Part shown: positions 7,645-37,859 of the stretch, in pieces
How positions within the stretch are numbered: position 1 is the stretch's first letter
Layout of the letters: every line of letters begins with the position of its first letter
DNA from: a virus
Direction: 5' to 3' (one strand)
IMG/VR virus record: IMGVR_UViG_3300045988_121014
Coordinates: 1-46,022 of that record
DNA: 46,022 bases
Notes under the pieces: model-generated
Database searches by the model: none
Told to the model about the DNA's origin: nothing
What the model saw: the letters and a program-made list of their open reading frames with translations, nothing else
Translations under genes and position numbers: made by a program

Positions 7645-8076
7645 ATGGTTAGCATAATAATAAATCCGGACATTTTGCGCCGGTTGATGGATCAACAGCA
7701 CTACACGAACGCTCGTCTGGCGGAGGAGACGAAGTTGTCCGAGGGCACGGTGAAGAGGTTGCTGAAGGGCTGCCCGACGACATACGTGACAGCATCGCTG
7801 CTGTCGATGACACTCGGTGTGACGGTTGACGAGTTGATCAGCGGCGAGACCGCAGCGAGCGACCAGGAGGAGACCGTCGAGATGACGGCGGAAGAAGCCT
7901 TGAAGATGTTGGAAAAATTGTATCTCGACCGCATTTCGGATTTGAAAGCGGTGATCGCCCGCATGAGCCGGGAGTTCCGAGTCGCGGTGACGATTGCTGT
8001 TGTACTGATGGCGTTCATATGTTTTCTTTTTGCGTTTGACGTCATAAACCCGAGCGTGGGATGGATAAAGAGGTGA
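7645..8076 (+). CDS. membrane-anchored XRE-family HTH protein
   Basis: HTH TNARLAEETKLSEGTVKRLLKG. C-terminal TM VAVTIAVVLMAFICFLFAF. GGAGGA SD before the ATG at 7645. Confidence 0.65.
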   Translation: MVSIIINPDILRRLMDQQHYTNARLAEETKLSEGTVKRLLKGCPTTYVTASLLSMTLGVTVDELISGETAASDQEETVEMTAEEALKMLEKLYLDRISDLKAVIARMSREFRVAVTIAVVLMAFICFLFAFDVINPSVGWIKR

Positions 8077-8080
8077 TAAG

Positions 8081-9115
8081 ATGATTATGGACAAGCTCCC
8101 GAGCGGTAGCTGGCGTGCAAGAGTGCTGATAGGAGAAAATAAGTACAAAACGTTTTCGGGCAAGGATAAGAAGGACGTGCAGCTCCGCGCGGCACAGTTC
8201 GAGGCGGAGAGGAAGATGGACAAGCCGGACGATCCGTATGCGGGCATGACGGTTGGAGAGGCTATGGAGCGGTACGTCGAGGCGAAGAAGAATACCCTGT
8301 CGCCGTCCTCGTACCGCGAATTTACACGCATCAGGTTAAGCAATCTTTCTGCGTTGCGAAATGTAAAGCTCGCCGATCTGACGCAGGAGCAGGTGCAGCT
8401 TGCCATAAGCGCGGAATCCGCCGACCACTCGCCGAAGACTGTCCGCTGTATGCACGGGCTGTTGTCCTCGACGTTGAAAATGTTCCGACCGGATATGACG
8501 CTGCATACGAAACTCCCACAGACGCAGAAGAGTGAGATCGTGATTCCGGAGGAGGTTGACGTCATGTCTCTGCTGGCGACTGTGCGGGGAAGTGATATCG
8601 ACGCCGCTGTTCACCTCGGCGCGCTGTGCGGGATGAGGATGTCGGAAATCCTCGGGCTGAGATGGTCTAAGGTGGATTTCGACGCGAAGACAATCCACAT
8701 CTGCGCGGCGAAGATCAGAGGGATGTACAACAAAGCTACTATGAAGCTTCCAAAGACCAGAGCCGGCGACCGGACAATCAGGATGCTGCCCGCCGTCGAG
8801 GCGGCGCTCAGACGCGCGTATCAGCCGGATGCGGAGTTTGTCACCACACTGTCGGAGCGTACCGTGCGGAAGCACTATCAGCACGCGCTTGAGCTGTGCT
8901 GTGGCAAGCACTATACTTTTCACGCTCTGCGCCACTATGCGGCGTCTGTGATGATCCTGCTGAATATCCCGGTGAAGTACATCGCCGACTATCTCGGGCA
9001 CGAAACTGAAGACATGGTGAACCGCATCTATGGGCATATTATGCGGGACAAGAAGGATGAAATATTCGCCCGGCTTGAAGAATACTATGATAACATTTTG
9101 CAAAATCCGTCATGA
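8081..9115 (+). CDS. int: tyrosine integrase (phage integrase family)
   Basis: C-terminal HALRHYAASV...LGHETEDMVNRIYGHI (R-H-R-Y catalytic signature), MRMSEILGLRW box. Adjacent attP-like region. Confidence 0.9.
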   Translation: MIMDKLPSGSWRARVLIGENKYKTFSGKDKKDVQLRAAQFEAERKMDKPDDPYAGMTVGEAMERYVEAKKNTLSPSSYREFTRIRLSNLSALRNVKLADLTQEQVQLAISAESADHSPKTVRCMHGLLSSTLKMFRPDMTLHTKLPQTQKSEIVIPEEVDVMSLLATVRGSDIDAAVHLGALCGMRMSEILGLRWSKVDFDAKTIHICAAKIRGMYNKATMKLPKTRAGDRTIRMLPAVEAALRRAYQPDAEFVTTLSERTVRKHYQHALELCCGKHYTFHALRHYAASVMILLNIPVKYIADYLGHETEDMVNRIYGHIMRDKKDEIFARLEEYYDNILQNPS

Positions 9116-26542: not shown

Positions 26543-27042
26543 CTCTTCTTCGCCTCCTGTAATACCTCTTCAAAAGCTCTGTACAGCGGCATTTGCGCCG
26601 CTGTTCCGTGGGTGATGACGAGGTTGCCGTCTTCGGCGTAGTAGCCCCACGCCTTCTGGTTTCCTTGTCCCTTGCCATATCCTCCGATAACGAATCCGAG
26701 GTCTGCGCCGTCAGGGTGAGGGGACGTTCCGGCGGGGGGATTATAATAGACTCCTGCCCCGAACTCGATGAACGTCACCTCGTCCCCTTCGGCGACGACT
26801 TTATAGCCGGTGCCGGTCTTTTCTACCCGGCATTTAACGTCGGCTTCGCCCCTGACGCCTCTGGCAAGGCTGTCGTACCATGCCGCGTCGAAGTTGCTCT
26901 GCGCTTTTTCGCATATCCGTTCGGCAAGGTCGCGCGCGGCGTCATCAAGCCGGTTCCGGTTGGCTGACATGAGGGATGCTACCTCATCGAGAGCCGACTG
27001 TATGCTGCCGGACGAGAGCCGGACAGTTATGCGTTTGCGCAT
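26539..27042 (-). CDS. HK97 gp10-like neck/head-tail joining protein (167 aa)
   Basis: GGAGGAAA SD before MRKRITV. Position. The upstream part of the track ORF is Arg-rich. Confidence 0.55.
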   Translation of the reverse strand: MRKRITVRLSSGSIQSALDEVASLMSANRNRLDDAARDLAERICEKAQSNFDAAWYDSLARGVRGEADVKCRVEKTGTGYKVVAEGDEVTFIEFGAGVYYNPPAGTSPHPDGADLGFVIGGYGKGQGNQKAWGYYAEDGNLVITHGTAAQMPLYRAFEEVLQEAKKR

Positions 27043-31502: not shown

Positions 31503-33278
31503 TCAGAATACCCGTTTCTGCACAGAGACGATGCCCCAGTTTCCGGTGGCGAGGTCCATGAGCTGTGCGAGCGAATCGGGCGCGTCGTCGTGGACGTTCT
31601 TGCCGAGTGAGACGAAGGAGCAGAGCCATTCGATGAACGAACGGTACTCCGGCGTCGAGTGGTCGAAGTCGAGGAAGTGAATCTTCAGGATGTCCGGCGC
31701 GTACTGGATGATGCGCGAGAGCTTCGGCGCGTTTCCGGGAGCACGCCGCGTCGAGATGTTGAGAACGCACCCTTTCTCGCGGAGCATTTTGTCCACAGCC
31801 TGCGCGTATTCCGTACCGCCGTTGTTCGCCTCAAACTGCACCTGGTGTGGTCGGTGAATGAGCAGCTTTCCGACGACCGCGGGCTGCGTGAAGGTTTTGT
31901 TCGCATTCGAGAATACCACGTCGACGCAGTACATCGAGCCGTCGCCGTAGATGTAGACTATCGGCATCGCGAGGTAGTCGTCGCCGCCCCACGCGACGTC
32001 GCAGGCTGCGATTATCCTGTCCGGCTGACCGCCCGGGAGTATCCCGTTGTAACGGAGCAGGGAATCCGGCGGGAAGACAAGCCCCTGACGTATATACGGC
32101 GCCCCCTGATACTTCGCGCACCATGTGCAGTCGTCGATCGACGCTTTCATGTCGCGATAGTATTCGGTCGAGAACCCGACGCCGTAATCGTACTGGAAGT
32201 TCGATTCTCCGTTCGCGTCGAGCGCGGGAATGACGGTGAAGCGGTAATCCGGATTGTCGCGGTACTGCTCGCGCACACGCCCGAGCGGGTCCATGACGTT
32301 CCAGCGCGTACCGACCATCAGCTGTAGTGCGCCATCCTTCATACGGTCTTTCATCTGGTTCAGGTAGATGTTGTACTTCGCGTCGAGACGGGATGGAGAC
32401 AGCGATTCCTCGAGGTCTTTCACGAGGTCGTCGACATAGAGGATGCCGTCGCGCGAGATGTCGATAGCGCCCGTCCATGTACCTTCCGCCGACCGGCAGG
32501 TCATTGTCGGGAAGCGCTTCGGGTGGTTGAGGTTGATCTGGAGGTACTTCGCCGACCGGCTTTCGATCTGCGCGTGCGGGAACACGTCGTGCCAGAGGTA
32601 TTCGCCGTCCGGATCGAGCACCGCGTTCAGCTCACCGTAGAACCCGTTCACGAGTGTGTCGGAGTGCCCGCCCATTGCGGACGATTCGTCCGGATGACGT
32701 CCCATGTGCCAGGTCAGGAATAAGATGCAGAGAGTACTTTTGCCCGTCCTCGCTGGTAAGGACACCCCGAGAAACCTAATTTTGTGTTCTTCGAGGTCTT
32801 GAAGATCATTGCATATCCTGAGCAATATCTTCCGCCTCGGCAGCCAGAACTTTCTCGACGGCTCTCTGTTCCATTCGACGTACTGCATATAGTGGTCGAA
32901 TGAGTGCGGCGCGAGCAGAAGGCAGACTTTTCGTTTCAGCTCGTACCATTCCGGCGCGGCTGACGTCTTCGCGGCGGCTGACCTCGCGAGCATACGGTTC
33001 ACGACGTCGAAGAATTCTTTCCCTTTCGCCACCATGTAGGCAAGCTCCTCCTCGTATGATTCTGCCGAATTGTCCTGCGCGAGCCCCCTCAGCGCGTCGA
33101 AGTAGTCTTTCGCGACCGACAGACTGTCCGTTCCGTACGCCGCGACAGCCTCGCACAGCACGACGCACTCCGGCAGCCGGTCGTTCCAGTTCTCGAACCC
33201 GGGGAGAATCTTTTTGTTCCTATTCTTTACCTTTTTTGATTTCTTCTTTCCAGTATCTTCACATGAAAAAGCGCCCAT
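31503..33278 (-). CDS. terL: terminase large subunit
   Basis: LPARTGKSTL Walker-A-like ATPase motif, about 590 aa, upstream of the portal gene. AAAGGAGAG SD. Confidence 0.85.
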   Translation of the reverse strand: MGAFSCEDTGKKKSKKVKNRNKKILPGFENWNDRLPECVVLCEAVAAYGTDSLSVAKDYFDALRGLAQDNSAESYEEELAYMVAKGKEFFDVVNRMLARSAAAKTSAAPEWYELKRKVCLLLAPHSFDHYMQYVEWNREPSRKFWLPRRKILLRICNDLQDLEEHKIRFLGVSLPARTGKSTLCILFLTWHMGRHPDESSAMGGHSDTLVNGFYGELNAVLDPDGEYLWHDVFPHAQIESRSAKYLQINLNHPKRFPTMTCRSAEGTWTGAIDISRDGILYVDDLVKDLEESLSPSRLDAKYNIYLNQMKDRMKDGALQLMVGTRWNVMDPLGRVREQYRDNPDYRFTVIPALDANGESNFQYDYGVGFSTEYYRDMKASIDDCTWCAKYQGAPYIRQGLVFPPDSLLRYNGILPGGQPDRIIAACDVAWGGDDYLAMPIVYIYGDGSMYCVDVVFSNANKTFTQPAVVGKLLIHRPHQVQFEANNGGTEYAQAVDKMLREKGCVLNISTRRAPGNAPKLSRIIQYAPDILKIHFLDFDHSTPEYRSFIEWLCSFVSLGKNVHDDAPDSLAQLMDLATGNWGIVSVQKRVF

Positions 33279-33317
33279 GGCGCCACTCTCCTTTGGAAAA
33301 ATGGCGCTCTGGGCGCT
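33266..33317 (-). promoter_or_regulatory. two-part hairpin plus U4 enclosing the terL SD and start codon
   Basis: 33270-33276 pairs with 33311-33317 and 33280-33285 pairs with 33302-33307. The SD lies in the 16-nt loop and the AUG in the internal loop. Confidence 0.55.
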
Positions 33318-33478
33318 CTAAGTATAGGGGTACGGTACTCCGCCACGGCACGATGCTGGTGCGGGATTGCTAATTGTTCCGTGACCGCTTCACGCGGTCA
33401 GGTGAACGTTTGCAGTATCTGTTCGCTGTCTTTCCTTTTCGGGAACAGTCCTGTTATGGTCGGAGCCCTAACACTGAA

Positions 33479-33510
33479 TCAGCGTTAAGTCAGCGTTGAA
33501 TCAGCGTTAA
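33479..33510. repeat. TCAGCGTT(A/G)A x3 with an 11-nt period
   Basis: Copies start at 33479, 33490 and 33501. Confidence 0.8.
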
Positions 33511-33568
33511 ACTCGCGGCAACTTGCGTACTTGCACCGCCGTTTACACCTTGTTTGCGCATTGTTTAT

Positions 33569-33610
33569 AACTAAGTTAAAACTAACTTGAAACTAAGTTC
33601 AAACTAAGCG
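33569..33610. repeat. AACTAAGTT-like 9-mers x4 with an 11-nt period
   Basis: Copies start at 33569, 33580, 33591 and 33602. Confidence 0.8.
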
Positions 33611-33688
33611 GTCTGTTACACGTGTTATTGTGTTACGGTGTTACGGCTTGTTGGAGCTTGATTAAATCTTATTGTGGTGTTGTTGGAA

Positions 33689-34468
33689 TTATTTCAGTAT
33701 CGGCTCGTGCGCTCCGGGAACGTAGTCCTTCATGCTGCCGTACTTGTAGTACCCCTGGTACGTCTTCTTGTTCTCGTATATCGACTGAATCGAGCTGATA
33801 GAGAACTTCGAACCGCTGCGGTTCACCTTCCCGTCGCCGTTCAGCTTCGCGCAGATTCCCTGATATGTCGCGCCGAGATCGTCCTTCATGTGGAATACTT
33901 CACGCACAATCTCTGCCTCCGGCTCGTAGATTTCGAGCGCGTGATTCCTGACTTTGTACCCGTACGGAGCGCGCCCGCCGCTGTAGCCGCCGCTCGACGC
34001 CTTGACAGCACGTCCGGCTCCGGTCCGCTTGCTGATGTTGTCTCGTTCCATTGCCGCGCAGGTGAGCGTGAACGCCTTCAGCATCCCGGCGAACACGCCG
34101 AACTGCCCGAAGTCCTCGCAAATGCTGATAAGCTCAATCCCTTTGCGGAGAAGCGCCCCTTGATAGTAAAAGTAGATGTTGATGTCGCGTGCCACACGGT
34201 CTGACTTCGCCACGACGACCGCCTGTACCGGCGGATTGCTCACTTCACCGTATACGATCTCGTCGAATCCCGGACGGTACTTCGCGCCGCTCTCCCCCTC
34301 GTCTGAGTACCATTTCACGATGTTCATGTCATTCCTGCGGCAGTAGTCAATGATCTGCTCGCGCTGTGCCTCCAGCCCGAACTTATCCTCTCCGACCTGC
34401 CCGTCGGTGCTGACGCGGATGTACGCCACCACGTTTGTGATTTTCTCCTTGCTTACCTGATTCTCCAT
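33689..34468 (-). CDS. serine recombinase: resolvase catalytic domain plus recombinase domain, ending where large serine recombinases continue
   Basis: VVAYIRVSTDGQ catalytic Ser motif. PYGYKV...EAEIVREVF recombinase-domain motif. Ends ...GAHEPILK with no zinc-ribbon or coiled-coil region. Confidence 0.8.
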   Translation of the reverse strand: MENQVSKEKITNVVAYIRVSTDGQVGEDKFGLEAQREQIIDYCRRNDMNIVKWYSDEGESGAKYRPGFDEIVYGEVSNPPVQAVVVAKSDRVARDINIYFYYQGALLRKGIELISICEDFGQFGVFAGMLKAFTLTCAAMERDNISKRTGAGRAVKASSGGYSGGRAPYGYKVRNHALEIYEPEAEIVREVFHMKDDLGATYQGICAKLNGDGKVNRSGSKFSISSIQSIYENKKTYQGYYKYGSMKDYVPGAHEPILK

Positions 34469-34581
34469 TGCGGTTGATTCTCCATTCTCTGACCATGCCA
34501 CTGCGCCGGTCGCCTTTCTCGTCGGGGCTATGCTCCCCTTCACTGATTCTATTTCGGGGTGCTCCGCCCTTCGCTGATTCT

Positions 34582-34610
34582 ATTATACCACATTTACGGT
34601 TAATTGTCAA
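34582..34610 (-). promoter_or_regulatory. perfect TTGACA-N17-TATAAT promoter for the recombinase gene
   Basis: Reverse complement of 34582-34610 = TTGACAattaaccgtaaatgtggTATAAT. Confidence 0.75.
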
Positions 34611-34834
34611 GAGGGTTTGCGTATTTTTTCAGATTTTTTTGATTTTTCTTTGGTCGGGAGGGTCAACCGCGCCGCCTCCCCGACATATGCACCCCCCGGG
34701 GTATCCGCCGCCGCCCGGTCTGCGAGCCCGTCAGGACCGCGCGAAACCGCGAAAATCCGCCCCTGAAATACTGCACAAAAATATCATTTGAATTTATGCA
34801 ATGTGCTGATTTACTGAAAATCATGATTTTGCTA

Positions 34835-34863
34835 TTGACATTTACGGTTAATCGTGCTATAAT
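34835..34863 (+). promoter_or_regulatory. perfect TTGACA-N17-TATAAT promoter for the plus-strand island operon
   Basis: TTGACAtttacggttaatcgtgcTATAAT. The -10 is bracketed by the 10-bp inverted repeat TTTACGGTTA / TAACCGTAAA. Confidence 0.8.
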
Positions 34864-34915
34864 AGTAACCGTAAAGAGTAAACAGCAGCCCCGAGAGGGC
34901 AGAAAGGATCATACC

Positions 34916-35635
34916 ATGAAAACATACAATCTGAAAGCATACAGACTCGCCCACAGCGACGGCAGGGGCAATCACTCCACGCTTGTAGTAATTGCAGAGT
35001 CCGCGGAGCAGGCAGCCGCCTACTACACAGTAGAGCAGGGGGTCAACGTCATCACCTGTACCGAGACGAGCTGGCCGGAGCCCGAGCAGCCCCGCGGGCA
35101 CGTACCGTTGGACTGGGTCGCGCCGGCAGCAGAGCCGGAGACCGAGACCGAGACCGCCGAGAGGGCAGAAAAGGAGAACACCATGAAATATATCGACACC
35201 ACCAAAACACCGGCAGCAGAAATCGTGACCACCCAGAGAGCAGCAGAGATCGCCGACGCCCTGGACGGCATCCGCCGCGAACGTGCGGCATACGGCTACC
35301 GCGCAAAGCAGCGCGTCACCGCCCGCTGCATCCGCGAGGCGGAGAGCGTCGGACGTCCAACCGTCCGCGTCGGCTACTGCGACCTGCAAGACGCGCTGTC
35401 CGGGATCACGCCCGACTGCTACACAGCCGGCGTCTACGGCTGGAATTGCGACATCTATACTATCGCTGGATTAACCATCTGCACCGGCTACCGCCCCGCG
35501 GCGGGCGTCCGGGCTGTGGGCGTCCGTGAGCTTGCAGAGGCTTGCAGAGGCGCAGACACCGCGACCCGTGACCGGCTGTTTGCAGCCTGGATCGTCACCA
35601 ACCGCGAGAGAGCACGAGAGGGGGCGAGGGCATGA
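34916..35635 (+). CDS. island protein (239 aa) with an in-frame internal start at 35183 giving a nested 150-aa product
   Basis: The ATG at 34916 and the ATG at 35183 are each preceded by CCGAGAGGGCAGAAA(A)GGA. No stop codon lies between them. Confidence 0.6.
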   Translation: MKTYNLKAYRLAHSDGRGNHSTLVVIAESAEQAAAYYTVEQGVNVITCTETSWPEPEQPRGHVPLDWVAPAAEPETETETAERAEKENTMKYIDTTKTPAAEIVTTQRAAEIADALDGIRRERAAYGYRAKQRVTARCIREAESVGRPTVRVGYCDLQDALSGITPDCYTAGVYGWNCDIYTIAGLTICTGYRPAAGVRAVGVRELAEACRGADTATRDRLFAAWIVTNRERAREGARA

Positions 35636-35868
35636 TCGCATACCTGCCAACCTACGACGCCGGGCGCCGCGGCGCCGCTGAGATCGACTCGGCGGCATCG
35701 CGCCGACTGCCGCACGGCACCATCTTGCAGCATGGCACACTGTACCACTGCGACGGCGTGCTATATCGCACACACGATGCCGCTATGGCGTCCTGGGATC
35801 GCTGGGCGCGCGTAACGGACGCCCTGCGGATCACCGCAGACGCTTTTTACAGCATGGTGAGCAGATAA
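35632..35868 (+). CDS. hypothetical island protein (78 aa)
   Basis: ATGA overlap with the upstream stop codon. Confidence 0.55.
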   Translation: MIAYLPTYDAGRRGAAEIDSAASRRLPHGTILQHGTLYHCDGVLYRTHDAAMASWDRWARVTDALRITADAFYSMVSR

Positions 35869-35931
35869 CGCCCGCCACCGCATACAACCGCCGCCCCCGC
35901 CCGGCTAAGGCGGGGAGAAAGAGAGATTATC

Positions 35932-36138
35932 ATGGCAAACATCAGCATTAACAACAACCGTAGCTACTGCACCCCGGCGGAGGCTATCGCCGCGTTGGGG
36001 ATGGACGAGGTCGCGTCCTGGATGGATCCGGAGACCCGGGACGCGCTGTCTAACGAGTGGCAGGGCGCAGACGACGACTACACCGGTTTTTTGACGGAGT
36101 ATCTCCGCCGGGCGCCGTATGACCTTATTATCGGCTAA
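35932..36138 (+). CDS. small acidic hypothetical protein (68 aa)
   Basis: GGGGAGAAAGAGAG SD before ATG. Confidence 0.6.
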   Translation: MANISINNNRSYCTPAEAIAALGMDEVASWMDPETRDALSNEWQGADDDYTGFLTEYLRRAPYDLIIG

Positions 36139-36142
36139 CCCC

Positions 36143-36171
36143 TTGACAACCGCCCGCCGGCGTGCTATACT
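36143..36171 (+). promoter_or_regulatory. promoter TTGACA-N17-TATACT
   Basis: TTGACA at 36143-36148, 17-nt spacer, TATACT at 36166-36171. Confidence 0.7.
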
Positions 36172-36190
36172 GTAAGTGGGAGGTGATAGC

Positions 36191-36259
36191 GTGCTTGTAG
36201 TGCTGTACATCCTGATCGTGCCCGTGCTGATCCTGCTGGAACTCGCCCACCGTTCATAA
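36191..36259 (+). CDS. 22-aa hydrophobic peptide (M)LVVLYILIVPVLILLELAHRS
   Basis: GGGAGGTGA SD 4 nt before GTG. Promoter 20 nt upstream. Terminator 5 nt downstream. Confidence 0.55.
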   Translation: MLVVLYILIVPVLILLELAHRS

Positions 36260-36264
36260 CCCCC

Positions 36265-36290
36265 GACCGCCCCGCGTGGGCGGTCTTTTT
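36265..36290 (+). terminator. rho-independent terminator
   Basis: GACCGCCC-cgcgt-GGGCGGTC followed by TTTTT. Confidence 0.8.
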
Positions 36291-36339
36291 ATGCCCCTGT
36301 GGCCCGTCTGGACTGCCGAGGCTTTTTGTGTCCGCGCTG

Positions 36340-36788
36340 TGACGTCCCACAAGCCCGCAGAACGTCTTGAAAGCCTCGAGAGGGTATCTATATCACCAGC
36401 AGTGTAAACGCCCCGCGCAGAGCCTCACAGAGCCTCACAGCCCTATGCCCGCCGTCACCGCCTCGAGAGGGTGCGCAGCCGCCCGCGTGCCCGGCACGAT
36501 CCGCCGCCGATCCGCACGCCCTCGAGGCTGCATATCTCTGTGAGCGCCTACAAGCCCCGTGAGCGCGTTTAATCCCTCGATAGGGTTCTTATACCGCCGC
36601 GCCTATTTCCGCGCGTCCTGGGGCGTCTGCGCGCGCCTTGGGACGTCCTACGCAGTCACGCCGCCGTGATTATCCGCGCCGCCGCCCCACCGCCTGGGAC
36701 GTCCCGCCGCCGCGAGAGGGGCTGCCTGCCGCCTGGGTGCCGCTCAAAACCCGCTCAATTTCCCGCCGATTTCCGAAAAATTTCCGAT
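36340..36788. repeat. GC-rich repeat-dense non-coding region
   Basis: GCCTCGAGAGGGT x2, CCCTCGAGGCT, AGAGCCTCAC x2 in tandem, GTGAGCGC x2, GGGACGTCC(C) x3, CCTGGG x4. Only Arg/Pro-rich junk ORFs. Confidence 0.7.
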
Positions 36789-36838
36789 CCGGTTTTGAAA
36801 ATCTTTTCTGCGAGTTTCAAAAACCGGATTTTTATTTT
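36789..36838 (+). terminator. long hairpin plus T-rich tail
   Basis: CCGGTTTTGAAA (36789-36800) pairs with TTTCAAAAACCGG (36815-36827, one bulge), followed by ATTTTTATTTT. Confidence 0.55.
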
Positions 36839-36849
36839 CTCGGTTCGCA

Positions 36850-36923
36850 ATAGTCGCTGATAATTTTTCGCGATAGTCGCTCGATAGTCGCTGACCGTCC
36901 GATAGTCGCTGGCAATAGTCGCT
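36850..36923. repeat. five direct copies of ATAGTCGCT just downstream of terS
   Basis: Copies at 36850, 36873, 36884, 36902 and 36915. Confidence 0.85.
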
Positions 36924-37026
36924 CGAATGTCAGGGAACGTCAATCACGTTCGTCATATTGCACAATACTTTTAGTAATTTATCACTGGCAAGTCCATTTC
37001 GGCTGTCGAAAATCAAACCTTTTGCC

Positions 37027-37842
37027 TTACTTCACAGTCTTGTCTTCATAGTCGCTTTCCCTCATCCCTTGCAAATATCTTTCCTGTAGCTGCTTCGGCG
37101 TGAGGTTCGCTTCACCCATCGGATTTCGCGTAGTTTCGGGCAATTCTGCGTTATCCCGCATTCCGTAATAGCACTTCGCACGGAAGCAGTATGCCAAAAA
37201 ATTCATCTTCCCGGCGACCACAAGTTTCGCGTCAAAAGACTGTTGAAATTCTTTGGCTTTTTCGAGAATTTGCGAGGAGATGGGGGTGAACCCCCGCTCT
37301 TCCCCATGTATAATCGCATTGACTTTTTTCAGCCCATACCCCAAACTCAGGCACACTTCCTCCCATACGGGCGTGCGTCCCTCGTTCGCGCAGCGGTCGT
37401 AGTAGTCGCTGATTCTCTCCGCCATTTCGTCGTCGTCCTTCACGGTTGGCTTCCGGAACTCGGTCAGCAGTTCGCGGAGAATCTGGCTCACGAATGCGCG
37501 GTCGTCGTCGTTCTCCGGCGTCCAGACCTTGGTCGGGAGGTACTTGCCTTTGTCGCTCTTCCTGCGCAGTGCCGCGTCGGGCATGTCCTTTTCGGGGAGT
37601 GTCAGCGCGTTGATGATAGTCGCTTTGTCTTTCTCGTCGACACGCTCCGCCACGCTTTCTGCATACTCAACCGCCCGCTTCCTCGCGTAGTTGTTCGGCG
37701 CATGCCGCTCGATTTTCTCCTTCTTCGGCTTCGGCGGCGACTTCGGTCTGCCTCGTTTCTTCGGCGCAGGGCTGTCCGCTCCGGTCGCAGCCGCCTTGCC
37801 TTTCGCCGTGTTCTTCGCTCCGGCCTTCTTCTCTTCGTCCAT
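37027..37842 (-). CDS. terS: terminase small subunit-like protein (P22 gp3-like core) with a Lys-rich, AT-hook-like N-terminus
   Basis: ERISDYYDRCANEGRTPVWEEVCLSLGYGLKKVNAI...KAKEFQQSFDAKLVVAGKMNFLAYCFRAKCYYGMRD follows the gp3-type TerS pattern. N-terminal KKRGRPKSPPKPKK. Confidence 0.6.
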   Translation of the reverse strand: MDEEKKAGAKNTAKGKAAATGADSPAPKKRGRPKSPPKPKKEKIERHAPNNYARKRAVEYAESVAERVDEKDKATIINALTLPEKDMPDAALRRKSDKGKYLPTKVWTPENDDDRAFVSQILRELLTEFRKPTVKDDDEMAERISDYYDRCANEGRTPVWEEVCLSLGYGLKKVNAIIHGEERGFTPISSQILEKAKEFQQSFDAKLVVAGKMNFLAYCFRAKCYYGMRDNAELPETTRNPMGEANLTPKQLQERYLQGMRESDYEDKTVK

Positions 37843-37859
37843 GTGATCTCCTTTCGCCC

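Follow-up and report, generated by a model that had tools for sequence, protein, structure and literature searches.

The DNA analysed here, called the window throughout, is the whole of IMG/VR virus record IMGVR_UViG_3300045988_121014 (46,022 nucleotides). It is a temperate tailed phage in which the genes for the small and the large terminase subunit, terS and terL, are separated by a 3.7-kb block (positions 33,279 to 37,026). We consider it probable that this terS-terL interval is not an insertion but a permanent, lineage-wide platform for moron-type accessory genes in this group of gut phages. Its fixed frame comprises a gene for a serine recombinase of ~250 amino acids (aa), read toward terL from a promoter that we name P_rec; a divergent promoter, P_cargo, for a plus-strand operon whose cassettes have no promoters of their own; a self-contained unit of promoter, membrane-type peptide (22 aa) and terminator; and ~750 bp of conserved non-coding DNA beside terS. 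According to this proposal, the recombinase would bind CGTAA/TTACG repeats that lie over both promoters and would thereby repress itself and the cargo, in the manner of the Tn3/gamma-delta resolvase at res. The catalytic residues of the phage enzyme are intact, and for this reason it may recombine DNA at the palindromic P_cargo site as well. Repression of its own gene and of the cargo is the most likely role that we can predict for the recombinase. The main features of the region are the following.

31503-33278, minus strand: terL, terminase large subunit (PHROG 38, E = 4e-50; NCBIfam TIGR01630)
33689-34468, minus strand: serine recombinase, 259 aa counted from MENQ (longest open reading frame (ORF) to 34543), with catalytic and recombinase domains
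34610-34582, minus strand: P_rec, 12/12 consensus positions, with TTAACCGTAAAT in the spacer, directed toward terL
34835-34863 (element to 34875), plus strand: P_cargo, a perfect TTGACA-N17-TATAAT promoter, 12/12
34916-35635, plus strand: p239, an in-frame fusion of two cassettes
35632-35868, plus strand: p78 cassette, present in 7/16 relatives, no family
35932-36138, plus strand: p68 cassette, a small acidic protein, found only in the window and in locus L008
36143-36285, plus strand: stand-alone mini-gene, with a promoter at 36143-36171 (consensus 11/12), the Shine-Dalgarno (SD) sequence GGAGGTGA, a 22-aa peptide (MLVVLYILIVPVLILLELAHRS) at 36191-36259 and an intrinsic terminator at 36265-36285
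37027-37842, minus strand: TerS-like protein, 271 aa, with a P22 gp3-like core at ~130-232

The terS-terL interval in related phages

Thirty-four IMG/VR loci (numbered below with the prefix L) were fetched with TerL and the proteins of the window were mapped onto them; the 16 loci whose TerL is 86-96% identical to that of the window were taken as close relatives, and synteny was read where the upstream flank sufficed. Every close relative with enough flank has the order primase, TerS-like gene, opposite-strand cargo, serine recombinase, terL, portal. The boundaries of the BLAST alignments divide the region into a conserved left frame (38300-36139), holding terS, non-coding DNA and the peptide unit, a mosaic centre (36139-34930), which is the sole part that varies among the relatives, and a conserved right frame (34929-33000), holding both divergent promoters, the recombinase gene, repeats and the start of terL. 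The cargo differs even among phages that are otherwise 92-96% identical in TerL.

The arrangement extends beyond the close relatives. Firstly, five relatives of the recombinase from other phage lineages (69-79% identity; L036, L040, L051, L052 and L053) were examined in their contigs. In all five, and hence in 6/6 lineages when that of the window is counted, the recombinase gene is located zero to three genes upstream of terL on the same strand, and in three of the five, one to three opposite-strand genes separate the recombinase gene from an upstream gene for a TerS of the GP3_package family. Secondly, in L019, whose TerL is 41% identical, a TerS homologue lies 6.4 kb from terL, with an HNH gene and opposite-strand genes between them. 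Thirdly, the annotated terS and terL of the cultured Clostridium phage Maintenon (TerL 47%) are 2.65 kb apart. Because the gap is kept in close relatives, in other lineages, in L019 and in Maintenon, we conclude that on this comparison it is ancestral.

These observations bear directly on how the block was first interpreted. The initial annotation had described it as an island that splits a normally contiguous terS-terL pair, and had taken it for a captured mobile element or a hijacker. What was found is a frame whose position does not change among the relatives or in distant lineages, with the same block and conserved synteny in the close relatives, an outcome that the annotation itself had named as speaking against capture. 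The opposite-strand genes, the own promoters and terminator, the recombinase gene and the higher G+C content are all features that would be explained if a mobile element, satellite or hijacker had recently been captured between a terS and a terL that were formerly neighbours. Against this stand the conserved position of the frame, the recombinase, which is a resident member of its family and not a remnant (see below), a G+C content at third codon positions (GC3) that is not deviant, and searches of the block that revealed neither att-like boundaries or flanking direct repeats around it nor genes for replication, capsid remodelling or packaging redirection within it. Recent capture is thus largely refuted, and we regard it as very unlikely. 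A hijacker of the phage satellite kind, like the phage-inducible chromosomal islands, was also rejected, because an integrase of its own with att sites and genes for replication and packaging redirection were not found.

Two properties that had made the block look foreign hold only in part. The cargo is indeed richer in G+C than the window (63% versus 56%), and the stretch 35001-36000 is the window maximum (65.3%), but other kb-scale stretches reach 64%, and GC3 is 0.75-0.80 in the cargo genes versus 0.70-0.85 in other phage genes, that is, without deviation. Since GC3 equals that of the other genes, the excess reflects amino-acid content and not foreign codon usage. Similarly, the block does hold opposite-strand genes, but that these are the only ones outside the lysogeny module is not certain: in the crude in-house gene call used to check it, plus-strand ORFs with low scores also appear at 26593-26967 and 40115-40756, and there is a 72-aa plus-strand ORF at 45063-45281.

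A two-domain serine recombinase

The serine recombinase noticed in the block is encoded at 33689-34543 on the minus strand, and the domain searches agree with this identity: the product matches the Pfam families Resolvase (2.3e-23) and Recombinase (PF07508; 2.6e-9, residues 209-283). Read from the sequence, the catalytic motifs R-x-S and D-R-x-x-R are intact (YIRVSTDGQ and SDRVAR). The protein aligns to the first ~245 residues of CcrB, CcrA, CcrC and XisF (positions 5-244 of the 542-position CcrB model), and among sequences in the PDB, the catalytic domains of TP901-1 integrase and TnpX come closest to it. A zinc-ribbon/coiled-coil domain is lacking. The recombinase was first described as C-terminally truncated.

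That description does not agree with the family as a whole. Among 1,734 matches, the best 120 are all 248-302 aa long and all have the same two domains. Moreover, the close relatives carry two recombinase alleles (A and B) that are 46% identical and yet share the terminus ...YVPGAHEPILK; we read the ...HEPILK end as the boundary between the recombinase domain and the zinc ribbon. Because the 120 best matches are of similar length and such divergent alleles end identically, the recombinase is, on these comparisons, a natural two-domain protein that is related to the large serine recombinases without having their defining third domain. It does not belong to the small serine recombinases either, as its C-terminal half is a Recombinase domain and not a helix-turn-helix (HTH). 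The possibility of a split recombinase, with the zinc-ribbon part encoded downstream, was discarded: the downstream genes in other lineages are heterogeneous and do not correspond to Zn_ribbon_recom. Homologues of the recombinase carry the labels Oscillospiraceae or Clostridia. In L004 and L013 the slot of the recombinase gene is occupied by unrelated small resolvase-type recombinases of ~190 aa.

In L001 (4522-4734), L010 and L017 there is a 212-bp insertion right after the recombinase stop codon (window 33651-33657), which encodes a ~65-aa protein (MNPAKKDNYNELAARN...) with a strong SD sequence and represents an optional extra gene.

Divergent promoters with recombinase-linked repeats

A promoter scan returned 8 promoter-like sites, versus 2.3 +/- 2.1 in shuffled sequences. 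Of the four own promoters attributed to the block by the initial annotation, P_rec, P_cargo and the promoter of the peptide unit were recovered at the proposed places, but the fourth (36366-36393) fell under the scan threshold. Of its two plus-strand terminators, that of the peptide unit (36265-36285) is strong, but the other (35824-35839) is weak and lies inside coding sequence. It should be noted that consensus promoters are not a foreign trait here, since four of the six perfect TTGACA-N17-TATAAT promoters of the window (6126, 6501, 11281 and 31434) lie outside the block.

P_rec and P_cargo are divergent and 250 bp apart. In the whole window, TTTACGGTTAA is present only at 34593, 34841 and 34865, the last copy being inverted and having one mismatch; each promoter has one direct copy in its spacer, and the inverted copy follows just after the -10 of P_cargo. 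P_cargo thereby contains a 33-bp palindrome, TTACG-N23-CGTAA, centred on its -10 hexamer.

Comparison of the loci shows that these repeats change together with the recombinase gene. Both promoter spacers carry TTCGCATTTACT / AGTAAATGCGAA instead in the loci with the allele-B recombinase, and the cargo type does not follow this change. Both promoters have CGTAA/TTACG cores around them in L036, L040, L052 and L053, arranged as in the window, although in L040 the right arm is imperfect (CGTAC); L051 has such cores around P_rec and no P_cargo that reached the scan threshold. In L004 and L013, which have a small resolvase, the perfect -35 and -10 hexamers stay and the CGTAA cores are gone. As the recombinase gene is the only gene that is always linked to the CGTAA/TTACG repeats, we infer that its product would bind them and repress both promoters. 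The layout is that of the res/TnpR type, with recombinase-linked repeats overlapping the recombinase's own promoter and the divergent one. The first description of the block as a self-regulated accessory module in the packaging region is upheld by these divergent promoters with operator-like repeats, together with the terminator and the variable cargo.

Rather unlikely, though worth weighing, is that the recombinase is mainly a working site-specific recombinase for packaging or the genome life cycle. Copies of the P_cargo palindrome would then be recombined in terminally redundant or concatemeric DNA, circularising injected genomes or resolving multimers, and the overlap with the promoters would be secondary. 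A system of this kind is Cre/loxP of P1, in which a recombinase and its site lie near the packaging site (pac) of a headful phage, so that terminally redundant DNA can be circularised. P1 is a plasmid prophage, and Cre is of the tyrosine type, unlike the serine recombinase of the block. Several observations fit this alternative: the catalytic R-x-S and D-R-x-x-R are intact, the gene keeps its place near terL in all six lineages, the 33-bp palindrome has the size of a recombinase dimer site and recurs in L036, L052 and L053 (and, with the imperfect right arm, in L040), the known TerS proteins of the P22 gp3 type, to which that of the phage is assigned, serve headful packaging, a 55-bp overlap joins the ends of the assembly, and the small resolvases in the same slot of L004 and L013 suggest that recombinase activity is a retained trait. 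However, no second site or recombination product was seen, and the two deletion-type junctions predicted between direct operator copies are absent from IMG/VR. In addition, the recombinase has no zinc-ribbon/coiled-coil domain, which controls synapsis in large serine recombinases, and the phage already has a tyrosine integrase. Such an activity does not exclude a regulatory role of the recombinase, and the two are compatible.

A DNA invertase that would turn the promoter region or the cargo around, making the block a phase-variable switch, is very improbable. The recombinase has weak similarity to the Mpi invertase family and inverted repeat copies are present around P_cargo; however, these copies are only 23 bp apart, too close for inversion, the copies of the other pair point the same way, long inverted repeats were not found around any segment, and a single orientation was found in all 16 relatives and in the five other lineages.

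Cargo cassettes and the joints between them

The proteins encoded at 34916-35635, 35632-35868 and 35932-36138 on the plus strand had been described as belonging to no recognisable family, and searches of Pfam, PHROG, NCBIfam and PADLOC bear this out; PADLOC also matches none of the cargo of the window or the relatives to a known defence system. A similarity of p68 to AcrIC5 (PF22147) was rejected, as it reached 20.1 bits against a threshold of 27 and there was no PDB sequence match. In the case of p239, residues 1-~70 form an N-module and residues 72-99 an acidic disordered linker (PAAEPETETETAERA), and the rest is a conserved C-module with the invariant pattern GYCDL...YTxGxYGWNCDxY...ICTGYRP. 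The C-module has its own SD sequence and ATG at 35183 and is found alone elsewhere as proteins of ~150 aa, and the relatives combine at least five types of N-module with at least four types of C-module. An AlphaFold model of p239, with a predicted local distance difference test (pLDDT) score of 76, gave no significant match in the PDB and matched only uncharacterised phage proteins in BFVD.

Cassettes and half-cassettes are promoterless and are swapped among relatives at short conserved joints. Because the cargo is shuffled rapidly in otherwise near-identical phages, its variation suggests roles in phage-host or phage-phage conflict. The joints and the copies of CGAGAGGG are located at these positions:

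34892-34899, plus strand: CGAGAGGG copy 1, within the 5' untranslated region of the cargo operon; the ATG at 34916 follows after 24 nt (start to start)
35158-35165, plus strand: CGAGAGGG copy 2, 25 nt before the internal ATG at 35183 (start to start)
35615-35622, plus strand: CGAGAGGG copy 3, 17 nt before the ATG of p78 (start to start)
35809-35934, plus strand: conserved cassette joint, comprising the 3' end of a p78-type gene, a GC hairpin and the ribosome-binding site of the next gene
36377, 36464 and 36713, plus strand: non-coding CGAGAGGG copies beyond the peptide terminator, with a variant, CGATAGGG, at 36578

In an unbiased screen for 8-mers specific to the block, the motif CGAGAGGG ranked first, with 6 copies in the block and 0 in the rest of the 46 kb. 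All six copies in the window are on the plus strand, within 34892-36713, and ~0.7 are expected on that strand. Eleven relatives have 4-7 copies per locus, on the cargo strand and in the same interval, and none in the remaining 10-18 kb, the lone exception being one copy in L007 that lies ~80 bp into terS. Homology breakpoints cluster at the three copies in the coding region, and L011, L012 and L017 lack the N-module exactly from copy 1 to copy 2. Since the motif is read in different frames (AERA versus REG), it is a signal at the DNA or RNA level. Its use as a general Chi-like word was rejected, because it is not enriched in unrelated loci, save for five scattered copies in L036. Further breakpoints are found at the joint that follows p78, where the ends of BLAST high-scoring segment pairs cluster at 35809-35857 and 35934-35939 in 10 relatives.

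These joints raise the question of an integron-like platform, in which cassettes would be taken up and rearranged by site-specific recombination at CGAGAGGG joints, through the recombinase or some other enzyme, and P_cargo would act as the promoter Pc. The gene arrangement agrees with it, with a strong promoter that points away from the recombinase gene into cassettes without promoters of their own, and so do the oriented 8-mer that occurs only in the array and in differing frames, the precise loss of one module between two CGAGAGGG copies in L011, L012 and L017, and the presence of one non-coding copy in an imperfect palindrome with a 2-nt bulge (36460-36528). However, the same motif is found with recombinase alleles A and B and also with the two unrelated small resolvases, enzymes that are not expected to share DNA specificity, and the CGTAA repeat that is linked to the recombinase was not found at the cassette joints. 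Furthermore, half of the recurrent joints are without CGAGAGGG, the motif is absent from the cargo slots of other lineages, and the ~15 bp common to copies 1 and 2, where the similarity continues across the start codon, suffice for recombination by short homology. We therefore think it doubtful that the platform works in this way; it is just as doubtful that recombinase, CGTAA promoter pair and CGAGAGGG-jointed cassettes together constitute a phage-borne, serine-recombinase analogue of the integron that captures, shuffles and expresses conflict genes beside packaging genes. The simplest reading of CGAGAGGG is that of a conserved linker supporting short-homology exchange.

In the terS-terL slot of other lineages, an FtsK/SpoIIIE-like ATPase of 245-364 aa recurs as opposite-strand cargo (L019 5271-6023, L036 5347-6084, L051 4085-4834 and L052 2282-3376); that of L036 has a weak nSTAND1 match.

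Points that weigh against the proposed platform

Several observations count against a permanent accessory-gene platform under the control of its recombinase. In the first place, the connection between the recombinase and the repeats is drawn from comparative sequence, and variants of promoter and gene could travel together simply because they are linked; pure drift is argued against by the fact that two separate promoters change as a pair. In L052 and L013, small HTH genes are located nearby, and these are possibly the real regulators there. Perfect promoters of the constitutive type that face terL are, moreover, hard to reconcile with lysogeny unless repression is tight. The persistence of CGAGAGGG whichever recombinase is present is not explained by the recombinase, and the recurrent joints at 35809-35857, 35934-35939 and 36139 are without the motif. 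Finally, in the cited databases of families, defence systems and structures, the cargo has neither a family match nor a match to an annotated structure that would indicate an accessory function.

The peptide unit and the non-coding DNA

The peptide unit is kept in 11/11 loci in which the promoter pattern was found. L009 and L013 encode a divergent peptide of 21 aa with the same hydrophobic-Pro-acidic-basic pattern; that divergent relatives keep this version indicates that the 22-aa hydrophobic peptide gene proposed for the block, located at 36191-36259, is a real gene, whose length and character are conserved. As in type I toxin-antitoxin systems, a small hydrophobic peptide has its own promoter; no antisense promoter of at least 9/12 was found near 36190-36450. 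A trans-antisense RNA from 7689-7713, where there is a 25-nt complement to the peptide unit, was considered and rejected, as this complementarity was not exceptional in a duplex scan of the whole window. A unit of the same design is found beside the lysogeny switch (6126-6330), where a perfect promoter (6126-6154) is followed by a small hydrophobic ORF of ~27 aa (SKFEKLYLTVCILQLIVDLLMLGLTL).

The non-coding DNA of the block, rightly called repeat-dense in the initial annotation, includes the following elements.

33475-33650: three helically phased direct-repeat arrays upstream of terL, TCAGCGTTAA x3 and AACTAAGTT x3 (both with an 11-bp period) and GTGTTACG x2-3
36460-36528 and 36640-36705: palindromes in the non-coding stretch 36286-36772
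36773-36843: AT-rich hairpin flanked by T-runs, an inverted repeat that is invariant in 12 relatives and paired in the consensus fold
36850-36924, plus strand: array of five ATAGTCGCT repeats, directly downstream of terS

The ~750 bp beside terS (36286-37026) are 80-91% identical among relatives, with invariant motif cores and varying flanks. No Rfam family matches this non-coding DNA; its folding z-scores are -2.6/-2.7 on the two strands, and 13/158 pairs are compensatory, so that covariation is weak; a structured RNA in this DNA is not supported by these results. The hairpin at 36773-36843 is probably a bidirectional terminator between terS and the plus-strand transcription. In the window there are 11 copies of TAGTCGCT, all on the plus strand and within 36851-40647 (3.8 kb), five of them clustered at 36850-36924, and the expectation is ~1.4 copies for the whole window on both strands; the occupied stretch corresponds to terS and the primase/helicase and primase genes. 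The ATAGTCGCT array may be a candidate TerS-binding or pac element. At the other end of the block, the repeats at 33475-33650 are kept in relatives with variation in copy number, whatever the type of recombinase; because they are retained whichever recombinase is present, they would belong to terL control or packaging and not to the recombinase, as a putative late-operon control or packaging site.

The terminase genes

The assignment of 37027-37842 to the terminase small subunit, already made in the initial annotation, gains indirect support. The protein has no direct Pfam or PHROG match at E <= 0.01; its match to PF16677 (GP3_package) spans profile positions 2-103 of 105 and misses the curated cutoff of 29.4, with 13.4 bits and E = 0.087. 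PF16677 is matched by 17/22 aligned TerS homologues that are 35-87% identical (best 5.2e-9), and homologues of 190-207 aa carry this domain. An AlphaFold model built on the homologue alignment has a pLDDT of 67, with 80-94 in the core, and its top PDB matches are five chains of the P22 small terminase 3p9a, with probabilities of 0.57-0.90 but E ~1-3; the template modelling (TM) score against 3p9a is 0.52-0.58 (target-normalised) over ~130 aligned columns. The N-terminal ~120 aa are rich in lysine and arginine (K/R) and include an RGRP (AT-hook-like) motif. Transitive homology thus supports a predicted P22 gp3-like TerS with a K/R-rich N-terminal extension.

In the case of terL, the start codon lies in the loop of a GC hairpin (33270-33285), and an alternative, mutually exclusive pairing with 33302-33317 is possible; control of terL by translation or attenuation through these hairpins (33270-33317) is conceivable. 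L008-L013 and L015 have in-frame insertions of 474 bp or ~880 bp in terL, at codon ~180 of the window protein, which interrupt the Walker A region (GK|...HN|S); they correspond to a mini-intein and to a full intein with a LAGLIDADG-like motif, and the TerL of the window is without them. An SPP1-type portal gene comes after terL on the minus strand, and a perfect TTGACA-N17-TATAAT promoter (31434-31406, minus strand) lies between the two, directly upstream of the portal gene. Structural genes would then have a consensus sigma-70 promoter of their own, which is odd in a temperate phage unless it is tightly repressed.

The phage genome

The termini of the window, 1-55 and 45968-46022, are an exact 55-bp overlap, and the assembly is consequently circular and a complete phage genome of ~45,967 bp. 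Outside the block, the following genes were located.

6569-6907, plus strand: repressor-like gene
8081-9115, plus strand: tyrosine integrase
43022-43858 (exonuclease) to 38198-40048 (DUF927 primase/helicase), minus strand: replication module

No tRNA genes were found. Among deposited phages the sole nucleotide match is the unannotated human faecal scaffold MT836094.1 (91% identity). The interval that separates terS from the DUF927 primase/helicase gene has, at 37860-38140, an AT-rich core surrounded by GGGGTAAC/GTTACCCC, nine copies in all and in either orientation, and looks like an iteron-type replication origin. Two near-identical phage-sized contigs, L045 and L046 (genome_contigs), are binned in metagenome-assembled genomes labelled Gastranaerophilales and Akkermansia muciniphila, which is almost certainly mis-binning.

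Comparison with known systems

The block shares with morons its own promoter and terminator and a variable presence; deviant base composition, another trait of morons, is seen in the G+C content of its cargo (63% versus 56%) and not in GC3. Like the morons of HK97 and lambda and the variable loci of P2, it places genes between conserved modules under a sigma-70 promoter and a terminator of their own; it is transcribed independently, here in the direction opposite to the flanking operons, and its content varies among close relatives. It differs from them in having a fixed lineage-wide frame, a resident recombinase and paired promoters bearing operators, in its location between terS and terL, and in cargo made up of cassettes and half-cassettes that are fused in frame through an acidic linker.

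With the TnpR-res systems of Tn3/gamma-delta it shares a serine recombinase gene that is divergent from a neighbouring unit, and repeated sites of the recombinase type that overlap both promoters, a layout that predicts autoregulation and repression of the neighbour. Unlike TnpR, the protein described here has a recombinase domain of the large-serine-recombinase type in place of the C-terminal HTH, and its context is phage packaging and not a transposon; the three-subsite organisation of res and a resolution substrate are not shown. The large serine recombinases (phage serine integrases, CcrA/B, TnpX and XisF) are similar in their catalytic and recombinase domains, over the first ~245 residues, but the protein of the block is without the zinc ribbon and coiled coil that govern the synapsis of att sites. 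It also differs from phage serine integrases in that it is not the integrase of the phage, which is the tyrosine enzyme encoded at 8081-9115.

Integrons (intI, Pc, attI, attC) are alike in that a recombinase gene is divergent from the promoter of exchangeable promoterless cassettes and a short oriented core is present at several boundaries. In contrast to integrons, the recombinase is a serine and not a tyrosine enzyme (IntI), the joint motif is independent of it, and the joints are short linear motifs without an attC-like structured site at each cassette end. Finally, anti-CRISPR operons with Aca proteins also have a very strong promoter with inverted repeats over the -10, small and fast-evolving unannotated proteins, and a linked DNA-binding protein as the predicted repressor; the block differs from them in that there is no HTH protein of the Aca type, the predicted repressor being the divergently encoded recombinase, and in that the AcrIC5 match of p68 is below threshold.

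Significance

In our literature searches we found no description of the ~250-aa recombinase class or of this layout. As far as these searches go, two things appear to be undescribed: the widespread recombinase of two domains, encoded where the packaging operon begins and accompanied by a pair of operator-bearing promoters, and the cassette joints marked by a motif. The analysis also corrects a reflex of annotation, by which such proteins are labelled "integrase" or "truncated recombinase" and terS and terL that are not adjacent are taken as the result of an insertion. If the proposal is true, the perfect promoters bearing operators and the compact DNA-binding recombinase could serve Clostridia genetics, and the slot would be a place to seek new phage conflict proteins, with cassettes that differ among otherwise near-identical phages. 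A common class of ~250-aa serine recombinases, with more than 1,700 sequences in phages and prophages of gut Clostridia, would gain a proposed role, as the resident regulator, and perhaps the recombinase, of an accessory slot at the head of the packaging operon.

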